A stretch of 64,000 nt of DNA, from NCBI GenBank assembly GCA_044892525.1, contig CM097885.1, positions 13,330,001 to 13,394,000 of the forward strand. The letters are read 5' to 3'. The stretch's first letter is position 1; each line of letters begins with the position of its first letter. Below the pieces are notes generated by a model, which searched no databases, was not told the origin of the DNA, and worked only from the letters and a program-made list of their open reading frames with translations. Source of the DNA: Schmidtea polychroa. Its lineage: Eukaryota. Positions 2,675-5,600 of this stretch are shown here, piece by piece. A program made the translations under genes and the position numbers.

Positions 2675-5600
2675 TATGGCTCAATCTCCAATAACCCTCA
2701 CAAACCCATCTTTGTACTATATAAGCCGCCGCGCCACGCACCTTTTTTGAAAGATCGTTGTGGATTCTCCATCCACCAACGCCATACTCGGCCAAGCAGC
2801 TGTCCATGTTCAGTTTGTTTAGGTGTAATCTCTCCATTATTATTTCTCCATTTTTCGCCAATTCCATATTCCACACTTTTCCCTGTTGCATTTCATTTTG
2901 TGACCAGTTTTCACTTAATGTTTTTACAAGCATCCTACCAAGTGGTTCTTTGATTGCTTCGTGTTTCGATTCCCCAATCGACACCTTGTCTTTCATGTGC
3001 ATCTTTAGAGGCGTGCAAGCGAGTTCCAGTGATCCTTGTTGCTTGAAACTGTTCGATGATTCGTTCAATTTTTCCAAAACTTCCTTGGCCCCTTGATCAT
3101 TATCACGTACAGTTTCCCATGATTTCCCATATACCATACTGGTCTCCTTGTTTTGCCTCTCCCCTCTGGAGTCTTCTGCCCCTTTTACATTATCACGTTC
3201 TTCTTTTAATCGATTAACTTCCCCTTCGTCGACCTGCATATCATTAACCGCCGCCTCGGGCGTTAACTCCTCTGATTCTGGTTTGTCTTTTTCCCAATTA
3301 CTCATCACTTCCGTTGTCTTCGGTTCCACAATTTTATCGTCGGATAATTTTATGATCTCACCAGCCCGGCAAGCTTCATCTTGCTTTTTTCCTGTATTCA
3401 TTTTTCCTTGAACATTTTGTGTCATTGTCATAAAGTTAAATAATTCGTTAGTTCTTCCAGAATTGAATATTTGCCCATCTAAATGACTCTGAGCTCCTTG
3501 CTCTTCATTAGATGCCTTACTCCTGTCGAGTGGCGTGTCCTCCATTCCTCGAGATGCGCGTAACTCGTCATTGAACATTTCAGTTACCGCAAAATAACTT
3601 TGACCCGTCCTCATTGATGCGTTTTCATTTAGTAATTCGTTGTGTCTTTGCTTACATCCGGTAACCTTGCAGAAAGATTCTTTACGACATTCCTTGGCCA
3701 TGTGATTTCTTTTGAAGCAATTCCTGCACAGTTTCTTTTCTTCGATGACTTTCTTCCTTTTAGGAATTGTTAGTTGCTTGAACTTGTCACATTGGTCTAG
3801 GTAATGTTGACCACCACAGTGTACACACTCTGATCTATAGCCGTTAGAGTTATTCACCTGTATAACCGTTCCACTTTTAACTCTGCCATCTGGTTGCCCC
3901 GTAAAATGCGTCCAACCTCCTGGATTGAAGCTTTCTCTTTCTCTAGACACACCTTCTACTCTTGGCCTATCATAAGCCCTGGTGCATGGTTGAGTCCCAT
4001 ACACGACCTCGTTAGTAGACCTTAGGATCTCCGCTTCTTGTTGTATCCATCTTCTCAAATCCTCTATCGTCTCCCGCAATTCCTTTTCTATTTTCTCTTT
4101 CTTCCATTTATACACAAGATCCGTTGTTAACTTGCCCAAACACTTTTGAAAAAGATATCCAGTCTTTAACTCGGATTCTTTCCCAGTGGATTTAAATCGC
4201 ACGGTGACTGTTTCTAATAATCCAACAAATAAGTCTAGATCCTTAAAATCTCCTTCTCGAATTGGCCTGAACTGGTCCATCTCCTCTAACATTGATAAAT
4301 ATATCCTTTCATCCCCACCATATCGCCTATCCAATTTCTCTTTTGCCATTTGATAAGCCTCTGCTGAATATCCAAGATTTTCAATTAACTTTAATGGCTC
4401 TCCGTGAAGGTACTGGTGCAGGTGAAACATCTTTTCAACCTCATCACCTTCCGCTTCGTCAACACACGCCGTAAAAGCTGCTTTCCATGGTTCGTACTCT
4501 TTCATCTTGCCTTCAAAGACCGGTATTGTAATTTTCTGTAGACTTTCCAGTTTTCTTTTATGCCCGGAATTATTCTTCTTGATGGTATCATCATTCCCCT
4601 TTTCCTTCTTTTCCATAAAAGATTGATTTGCTTTTCTTTCCATCAATGCCCCAATTATTTGATGTTTTTCCTCGATCTCCTGCAGGTCTTTATCTAAGAT
4701 TGCAGTGATGTCCAATCTATGCAATTTTTCACTGATCGTTCTTAGATCTCTTAATTCTTCATCTAGACTCTCCTTTATATCTTCATATTCCTCCAACCAT
4801 TTGCTAACATCCTTACCCTTTATATCATTCAGAATCTTGTTTCTCCATCTCGTTAATTTTCCTTTTTTCATTCTCTTTTTCCACATTTCTTCTTCTAAAA
4901 TCTCTTCGTCATTGCCACCGCACAGCCTAAGTGACAAATGAAGTGTCGACCCTACTTGTATTCTATAATCATTCAATCTTCTTTTATTTTCTAACTGCTT
5001 TCCTGCGTATACTAACGTTTGATAATTTTCCGGAATTCCTTCTTTGTCCTGGATTTTTCCTTTTATCTTTTCAATTGTGTCGTTCCATTTAACGTCCAGA
5101 GTAATTGTCTTACCAGTAAGAGTCTTGACAAATATTTGATTTATACTTCCCCATCGCAACTCAAAACCCATTACCCCGCTCGCCCTCACCCTTGACTCAG
5201 ATCTGTTCTTTACCCTGTTCCCCTGGCTTCCCCCTTTAAAAGAGTGCTGGGGCCCATAGCAGCACTTTCCCACGCTTGGTAGGGAAGGGAGGATGTTTAA
5301 TTTTACAAAAGTATTATAATATATACATAAAATGCATGAACAAGATTTTTTATAATACATATTAATTACCAAAATATTATTAATTACAAAGATATTATTA
5401 AACACATAATAAACATAATATTTACATAAGATATATAAACCCAAAAAAGACAGTTTATAATACATTTTAATTACCTTGTTCCAGCTGGCTAGCCGGAACC
5501 ACGCTCTGCTACCATGTTCAATCGCGAATTCATAATAATCATAATAATCACACATAATCATTTTATTTTCATATACATGTTTATATCTACATCGAGCTGC

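Follow-up and report, generated by a model that had tools for sequence, protein, structure and literature searches.

A diverged ubiquitin domain ahead of Gag in BEL/Pao retrotransposons of Schmidtea polychroa, a candidate processing signal for host deubiquitinases

The window analyzed here, a stretch of 64,000 nt of Schmidtea polychroa DNA (assembly GCA_044892525.1, contig CM097885.1, positions 13,330,001 to 13,394,000), contains a whole non-autonomous BEL/Pao element with long terminal repeats (LTRs), 4,589 bp long and delimited by its LTR pair and target-site duplication (1694..6282, on the minus strand like all element features below; coordinates are window positions). In this retrotransposon, a diverged ubiquitin domain is fused in frame to Gag. 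Here, we describe the element, its relatives, and the selection acting on the fusion. From sequence comparisons we consider it probable that the ubiquitin is a processing signal for host deubiquitinases, which would release Gag from a leader that is encoded in the LTR and made up of swappable pieces of host mRNA.

The element and its copies

The two 768-bp LTRs (5' LTR, 5515..6282, TG...CA; 3' LTR, 1694..2461) differ by one mismatch, the 5-bp duplication TTGAG flanks the element at 1689-1693 and 6283-6287, and a polypurine tract adjoins the 3' LTR (2462..2472). A single open frame of 1,153 codons from stop to stop (2646..6107), with its first in-frame ATG at 6077, runs in order through LTR cargo, primer-binding site (PBS), spacer, ubiquitin, Gag, zinc knuckles, and acidic tail. 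The cargo includes captured fragments of SNF8/Vps22 of ESCRT-II (5754..6050; Pfam EAP30 E 5e-9, PDB SNF8 E 1.6e-10) and of the proteasome subunit alpha-6, PSMA6 (5556..5747; PDB E 1e-13), and even the AATAAA polyadenylation signal near the LTR end (5562..5567) is translated in frame. The PBS (5497..5514), located by 20-mer matches across the genome and presumably of the initiator-Met tRNA type, is read as HGSRAW. It is followed by an AT-rich spacer of variable length that is kept in frame (5142..5496, with an in-frame ATG at 5169-5171), and by ubiquitin positions 1-76 with the tail LRLCGG (4914..5141; sequence, Pfam, and structural model). The Gly-Gly/Asn junction (4911..4919) is the predicted cleavage site and start of mature Gag, whose capsid region (DUF1759, 4095..4517; Pfam E 2e-12) precedes a zinc-knuckle region (3642..3794) with a weak Pfam zf-CCHC match (E 0.07) and a Cys/His spacing that aligns across families. 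The original prediction had placed the fusion at the Gag N-terminus; ubiquitin and Gag do share one frame, but this frame does not start at the Met codon at 5171 and is open back to 6107 in the 5' LTR.

The DUF1759 Gag with Cys/His knuckles, the paired LTRs, the PBS, the polypurine tract, and the target-site duplication place the element in BEL/Pao. A Pfam scan and a comparison with a Pol-bearing copy found no Pao-type protease, reverse transcriptase (RT), RNase H, or integrase in the window copy, whose similarity to the Pol-bearing family member stops after the zinc knuckles; it is a non-autonomous BEL/Pao derivative. The acidic tail and last 80 residues (2646-3620) resemble the tails of two non-autonomous elements (L208 and L210) of a second family, B, which keep a protease and lack RT, and the window copy looks like a chimera of the Gag of its own family, A, and a shared 3' end.

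In the 781 Mb of genome searched (four large contigs), the element has at least 40 copies at 96-100% identity, and a 20-mer spanning the LTR end and PBS has 351 exact matches. PBS, ubiquitin-Gly-Gly, and Gag share one frame in 25 of 30 close copies. A Pol-bearing database relative used as query gave 30 loci, 15 of which have ubiquitin, a protease motif, and an RT motif in one frame; in 14 of these 15 the PBS is also in frame, and in 14 LRLCGG is followed by Asn. In the internal region that both have, one Pol-bearing locus taken for comparison shows 95% identity to the window copy. The fusion had been linked to the lack of a protease, a link that fails because protease-encoding copies carry the same fusion.

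Selection on the ubiquitin domain in two families

The window domain is identical to the genome's own ubiquitin at 53 of 76 positions (69.7%), in agreement with the roughly 70% of the original prediction, whose listed kept residues and substitutions are all correct. K6, K11, K27, K29, K33, K48, G75, and G76 are retained, and the 23 changes include K63V, I44V, V70S, R42T, R74C, M1N, and F45Y. R42T is particular to the window subfamily, position 42 being Met in 33 of 44 other family-A copies. The Gly-Gly codons (4914-4919) are followed by Asn (4911-4913) and then Asp-Glu-Glu, and the Pfam ubiquitin match (E 8e-23) lies in the same frame as the DUF1759 match. An AlphaFold2 model gives the domain blocks pLDDT values of 87-91 and shows ubiquitin, a short low-confidence linker, and then a long helix; the modeled domain superposes on most of the single-ubiquitin chains listed with a root-mean-square deviation of 0.5-1.5 A, so that sequence and predicted beta-grasp fold are those of ubiquitin. 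It is not a canonical conjugatable ubiquitin, which requires a free Met1, the Ile44/Val70 patch, and an LRLRGG tail, since it carries M1N, I44V, V70S, R74C, and K63V. Compared with all 19 host ubiquitin units examined (nine loci), its synonymous divergence (pS) is 0.65-0.93 and nonsynonymous divergence (pN) about 0.19; synonymous sites are thus saturated and the capture is old.

Variation among copies was studied in 87 elements drawn from the first 100 PBS sites listed, which are all located on contig 1 (of the other 13 sites, 12 were already covered as other loci and one was a tandem neighbor), and a ubiquitin match lies downstream of the PBS in 76 of the 87 elements. When 44 family-A copies were compared with one natural copy, that of the window, by allele counts rather than tree-based rates, pN/pS in the ubiquitin domain was 0.88 for singletons, as expected for decay after insertion, 0.34 for variants found in at least two copies, and 0.23 for those in at least three (Fisher p 0.01 and 7e-4). 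Gag gave 0.13-0.39 in the same comparison. The domain is therefore not neutral, a point on which the original prediction had made itself refutable; it is under purifying selection comparable to that on Gag. Gly-Gly, whose conservation was a second such point, is unchanged in 38 of 44 copies, with Gly75 written by another synonymous codon in 20 of 44, and I44V, V70S, K63V, and R74C are near-fixed in the family. Three copies with G76D carry differing Gly75 codons and look independent.

Family B offers an internal control. Its Gag is 37-38% identical to that of family A in the aligned region and is preceded by two ubiquitin units. The first of these, together with some 34 codons of the other, corresponds to units 2-3 of a single host polyubiquitin gene, with 5 mismatches in 321 bases (L079 vs. 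L062; contig 1, 43.41 Mb), while beyond those codons the similarity falls to background. This pattern points to a recent recapture in which a template switch would have led from host polyubiquitin into an older unit. (One element, L142, looks like a family B copy with a single unit.) The recently captured, canonical spare unit has a shared-variant pN/pS of 0.69 and an intact Gly-Gly in 19 of 23 copies, with G76V common to three, whereas the Gag-adjacent unit, with the tail LGLAGG, has a pN/pS of 0.19 and an intact Gly-Gly in 22 of 23 (p 0.015-0.03 for the contrast over 23 copies). Selection in family B targets the unit that touches Gag and not the production of free ubiquitin, a pattern that fits a cut at the Gag N-terminus and also fits an uncut domain.

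The same data bear on whether the domain could be a passively captured host fragment without function. These elements do take up many pieces of housekeeping mRNA, and the family B spare unit shows a ubiquitin that was captured and then decayed. However, passive capture is contradicted by the shared-variant pN/pS, by purifying selection equal to that of Gag in two families, and by the same junction in nine lineages (see below), and we regard it as extremely improbable.

Lineages, junction, and leader

A Gag profile searched against 1.84 billion representatives, together with 17 earlier matches, gave 167 proteins. A ubiquitin match clearly precedes Gag in six of them, and a seventh, P0001, was confirmed through the full-length cluster member P0288 (ubiquitin plus Gag-Pol). 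The survey of BEL/Pao Gags that the original prediction had called for thus yields at least seven of 167 related proteins, a lower bound because many of the 167 are fragments. P0181, in which only the last six residues suggest ubiquitin, was left out of the lineage counts; it is a Gag of the same group in which CCCH zinc fingers (PF00642) replace the usual knuckles and a long coiled-coil tail (PF21771) is present. A ubiquitin-plus-Gag profile search had only polyubiquitins among the 120 matches listed, a third homologue search (11 matches) found no further ubiquitin-Gag lineage, and the ESM Atlas returned low-score DUF1759 clusters only.

With families A and B, the seven database lineages make nine, whose Gags are at most 53% identical to that of the window over the capsid region and whose ubiquitin domains are 50-82% identical to host ubiquitin. 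All nine retain Leu73 and Gly76, eight retain Gly75, and the core residues Asp58, Thr66, and Leu69 are conserved as well. In contrast, Ile44 is retained in one of seven lineages, Val70 in two of nine, and Lys63 and His68 in five of nine each; Leu8 is kept in five of six. Hence Leu73-x-Gly75-Gly76 and the fold core are conserved while the Ile44 surface drifts. Multiplying across lineages gives a null probability of 1e-7 for the retention of Leu73, Gly75, and Gly76, a figure that is not relied on because it assumes independent lineages.

This drift bears on the view that ubiquitin stays uncut as a folded N-terminal Gag domain, aiding solubility, assembly, membrane contact, or ESCRT recruitment for budding, with Gly-Gly as a mere linker. 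Engineered ubiquitin-Gag fusions can replace late domains in budding (PMC2958808), Arg72 and Arg74 are lost in family B and Arg74 in family A (R74C), and selection in family B acts on the altered-tail, Gag-adjacent unit rather than on the canonical spare. However, the budding function is described as needing both Leu8 and Ile44 (PMC2958808), and an intact patch of these two is not what the lineages show, given the counts above for Ile44, Leu8, His68, and Val70. Leu73, which lies outside the fold, is invariant, an uncut product would carry 250-400 residues of swappable leader, and at least eight other kinds of cargo occur besides the ESCRT-II piece of the window LTR. We consider an uncut domain unlikely.

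The position of the junction agrees with a cut. The first helix motif of Gag lies 20-26 residues after Gly-Gly in eight of ten ubiquitin rows and, in seven of nine ubiquitin-less relatives, at a distance of 18-39 residues from the first Met (the motif is unmatched in the remaining rows of both kinds). The Gly-Gly junction thus sits where Gag starts in relatives without ubiquitin, and cleavage there would restore the usual Gag N-terminus, the agreement being one of position only. About 150 residues precede ubiquitin in P0288 and P0168, and P0168 has, by eye, a GSRA near its start that resembles a translated PBS. A Gag tree of 32 rows shows the ubiquitin lineages as a grade that encloses a large ubiquitin-less clade (100/97), and monophyly of the ubiquitin-Gags was not recovered in the Gag trees; the two changes needed mean either one gain and one loss or several gains, of which the shared junction position favors a single gain.

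The residue after Gly-Gly was likewise compared, since a cut there might serve to expose an N-degron limiting the half-life of Gag, as the original prediction had suggested for Asn. Asn and Gln are tertiary destabilizing residues, and in family A Asn follows Gly-Gly in 43 of 44 copies, with lysines 12-19 residues downstream. Across the nine lineages, however, the residues are N, S, Q, S, S, S, G, M, and N, so that Asn or Gln occurs in only three and Asn is fixed only within family A; because six of nine have Ser, Gly, or Met, the degron is not conserved along with the fusion, and as its purpose it is highly improbable.

Upstream of the domain, 59 of 87 elements have a Gag frame without stops along 100 LTR codons, compared to 0-4 of 87 for the other five frames. 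(An earlier frame control, giving 60, 0, and 1 of 87, was replaced by counts of stops further upstream, as it may reflect a stop common to LTR ends.) Clustering of the 60 open LTR frames gave 35 groups, and 25 of 36 scanned leader sequences (35 representatives and one window-type copy) have Pfam matches, representing at least nine kinds of cargo: proteasome, SNF8, dual-specificity phosphatase, TCP-1, Ras, RING, adaptin, cofilin, and LIM. The idea of the cargo as a ubiquitin-system module (SNF8, PSMA6, and ubiquitin) was rejected because phosphatase, chaperonin, Ras, RING, adaptin, cofilin, and LIM pieces also occur. The same cargo precedes an element of family A and one of family B (L038 and L209), and LTR contents have therefore been swapped between families with Gags less than 40% identical. 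Contigs that run past the edge of the PSMA6 cargo, probably host mRNA, differ from the window (5556-5747) at 8 of 153 bases, and the three best-supported differences all change the residue, which suggests that this cargo is not constrained as a protein.

The spacer, placed in 73 of 87 elements, conforms to an open frame as well: lengths common to at least two elements are multiples of three in nine of ten cases (p 4e-4). Its residues appear unconstrained, with a shared pN/pS of 0.9 over 60 codons in 47 copies and, for the longer spacer of a 14-copy subset, 0.4 on few changes. The frame is thus held open across many different leaders. In 73 of 87 elements the final 90 nt of the LTR contain AATAAA, compared to 8 of 87 for a control window, and given this far-end position the cargo would sit in R, at the 5' end of the transcript. 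One contig, whose source run is only guessed to be RNA, terminates in a stretch of T 15 bases past AATAAA, a weak hint in the same direction.

Translation might nevertheless begin at the AUG at 5171, in which case the LTR frame would be incidental and ubiquitin would act as an expression or folding tag. This ATG lies 11 codons ahead of the domain, is flanked by a purine at -3 and a G at +4, and is frequent among family A copies. It is preceded by 35 ATGs within the element, though, no such Met is found among the 12 residues that precede the first unit of family B copies, and elements with unrelated cargos and differing spacer lengths keep the upstream frame open; a local start is accordingly improbable. 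A start downstream of the domain, which the original prediction had named as fatal to it, is likewise disfavored by the open LTR frame.

Splicing as a route to Gag was also set aside, because joining the donor-like and AG sites would leave the Gag frame. By eye, a splice-donor-like AAG/GTAATT directly follows the PBS in families A and B, and the AT-rich stretch and pyrimidine tract with AG before ubiquitin (5265-5480) are intron-like, yet are in frame and encode a hydrophobic stretch. No GT-AG joints across the spacer were seen in contigs of four runs only guessed to be RNA; one contig skips 5317-5468 with non-splice ends and is probably a shorter spacer variant. The spacer also contains a hairpin with a GGGCCC-type palindromic loop (about 5243-5266) that resembles a dimer-initiation site, and its reading CYGPQ recurs in the distant lineage P0288.

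Host cleavage, known parallels, and minor features

In the mechanism that we propose, transcription would begin near the left end of the LTR, and ribosomes would initiate at an AUG early in the mosaic of captured host mRNA and continue across PBS and spacer. A host deubiquitinase would then cut after Gly76, the leader-ubiquitin piece would be discarded, and Gag or Gag-Pol with a normal N-terminus would go on to assembly; the Pol-less window copy would be mobilized in trans by Pol-bearing members with the same fusion. Deubiquitinases are reported to accept only Gly at P1, to be narrow at P2 and wider at P3-P4 (10.1101/2020.01.30.926881), and L73P ubiquitin has been used as a non-cleavable form (PMC10667490). 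The tail signatures of the nine lineages fit the proposed cleavage by host enzymes. Separation of Gag from the LTR-coded part, as originally envisaged, thus gains support from the conserved Gly-Gly, the non-neutral domain, and the open upstream frame, all read from sequence.

Several observations weigh against this proposal. Arg74 is kept in only three of nine lineages (Arg or Lys in six) and Arg72 in five, family B lacks both (LGLAGG), and UCH-L3 is reported to prefer Arg at P3 (10.1101/2020.01.30.926881). Gly75 or Gly76 is changed in six of 44 family-A copies, one of them in a Pol-bearing locus that has a long open frame, and one database lineage, P0140, which looks damaged mid-domain, has G75E. 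Singleton spacer lengths are out of frame in 17 of 34 cases, and the estimates of selection are, as noted, allele counts. The nested ubiquitin-less clade means that the domain was lost, or gained more than once. Gly-Gly could be kept as a flexible linker, and changes in the Ile44 patch could weaken binding by USP-type enzymes. That the altered patch and tail resist cleavage and change receptor binding, as the original prediction allowed, is retained as a minor rival: the drifting patch and the frequent loss of Arg72 and Arg74 speak for it, the conserved Leu73-x-Gly-Gly against it. Tail-engineered conjugates with insertions resist USP7 and UCH-L3 (PMC9773336), so that tail changes can block cleavage.

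The closest parallel is found in cytopathic pestiviruses (bovine viral diarrhea virus Osloss, CP1, and CP Rit), in which a captured ubiquitin is cut by cellular ubiquitin C-terminal hydrolases to give the authentic N-terminus of NS3 (PMC8310069). There, as here, host ubiquitin was captured in a polyprotein ahead of the released protein, RNA recombination being the pestiviral route, and CP Rit likewise has a unit without its first residues and other host sequence in front (PMC8310069). The whole ubiquitin unit ending in Gly-Gly directly before Gag is of this pestiviral type, and the BEL/Pao element probably works like these insertions. The pestivirus unit, however, is recent, near-identical to ubiquitin, limited to some strains, and placed before NS3, while the present one is old, fixed across retrotransposon lineages, placed before Gag, and only predicted to be cleaved.

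Other systems share parts of this arrangement. BEL/Pao elements (Belpaoviridae) have the same DUF1759 Gag, zinc knuckles, TG...CA LTRs, and 5-bp duplication, and autonomous members have a single Gag-PR-RT-RH-IN frame; mostly, however, the relatives start Gag at its own Met, whereas here the frame opens in the LTR and reads through PBS and ubiquitin. Linear ubiquitin has been fused to Gag in engineered constructs (prototype foamy virus, PFV; equine infectious anemia virus; Rous sarcoma virus), but the ubiquitin of the PFV construct is C-terminal, lacks Gly-Gly, and needs Leu8 and Ile44 (PMC2958808), while here it is N-terminal with Gly-Gly kept and Ile44 lost. The planarian giant gypsy element Burro also encodes an LTR polyprotein with ubiquitin/SUMO-like and other host-like domains (PMC6431247), but is a Ty3/gypsy element with the domain internal and downstream of Gag, and the text available for that study mentions no Gly-Gly processing role (PMC6431247). 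Host precursors (polyubiquitin, RPL40, RPS27a) have ubiquitin-Gly-Gly followed by a protein with a cleavage-made N-terminus; they keep ubiquitin invariant and supply free ubiquitin, whereas the N-terminal extension and drifting surfaces seen here make it unlikely that the captured unit feeds the ubiquitin pool. The laboratory ubiquitin-fusion technique similarly places ubiquitin-Gly-Gly before a protein whose N-terminus is made by cleavage. A search of openly accessible literature, without Repbase, brought up no description of ubiquitin fused to Gag in BEL/Pao elements or any other LTR retrotransposon.

If the proposal is correct, a retrotransposon lineage makes the start of its capsid protein with a host enzyme and a captured ubiquitin instead of its own protease, which would make it an enduring natural parallel to the pestivirus insertions and the laboratory technique. 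This would explain how hundreds of captured host codons are tolerated before Gag, and the ubiquitin variants of these lineages would be a natural series from which the residues needed for cleavage alone, once signaling is dispensable, could be read. More tentatively, and with slightly less than even confidence, we suggest that an old BEL/Pao branch has delegated its Gag N-terminus to host deubiquitinases by means of a domesticated ubiquitin, that this ubiquitin is renewed through template switching with host polyubiquitin mRNA, and that it is what makes the LTRs a platform for in-frame gene shuffling; the product translated ahead of the cut would be thrown away, and the R region of the LTR could therefore freely take up and exchange pieces of host mRNA in frame.

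Minor features were also noted. Short imperfect purine-rich repeats (minus strand) lie between the stop codon and the polypurine tract of the window copy (2483-2700). On contig 2 (5.70 Mb), two copies of the element (L008 and L009) stand in tandem about 3.9 kb apart, apparently with one LTR in common. Elsewhere in the window, diverged copies of a dispersed AT-rich repeat family (D1, D2, D4-D6) are present at 1141-1247, 8191-8902, 13620-13782, 16682-16818, and 49277-52215.

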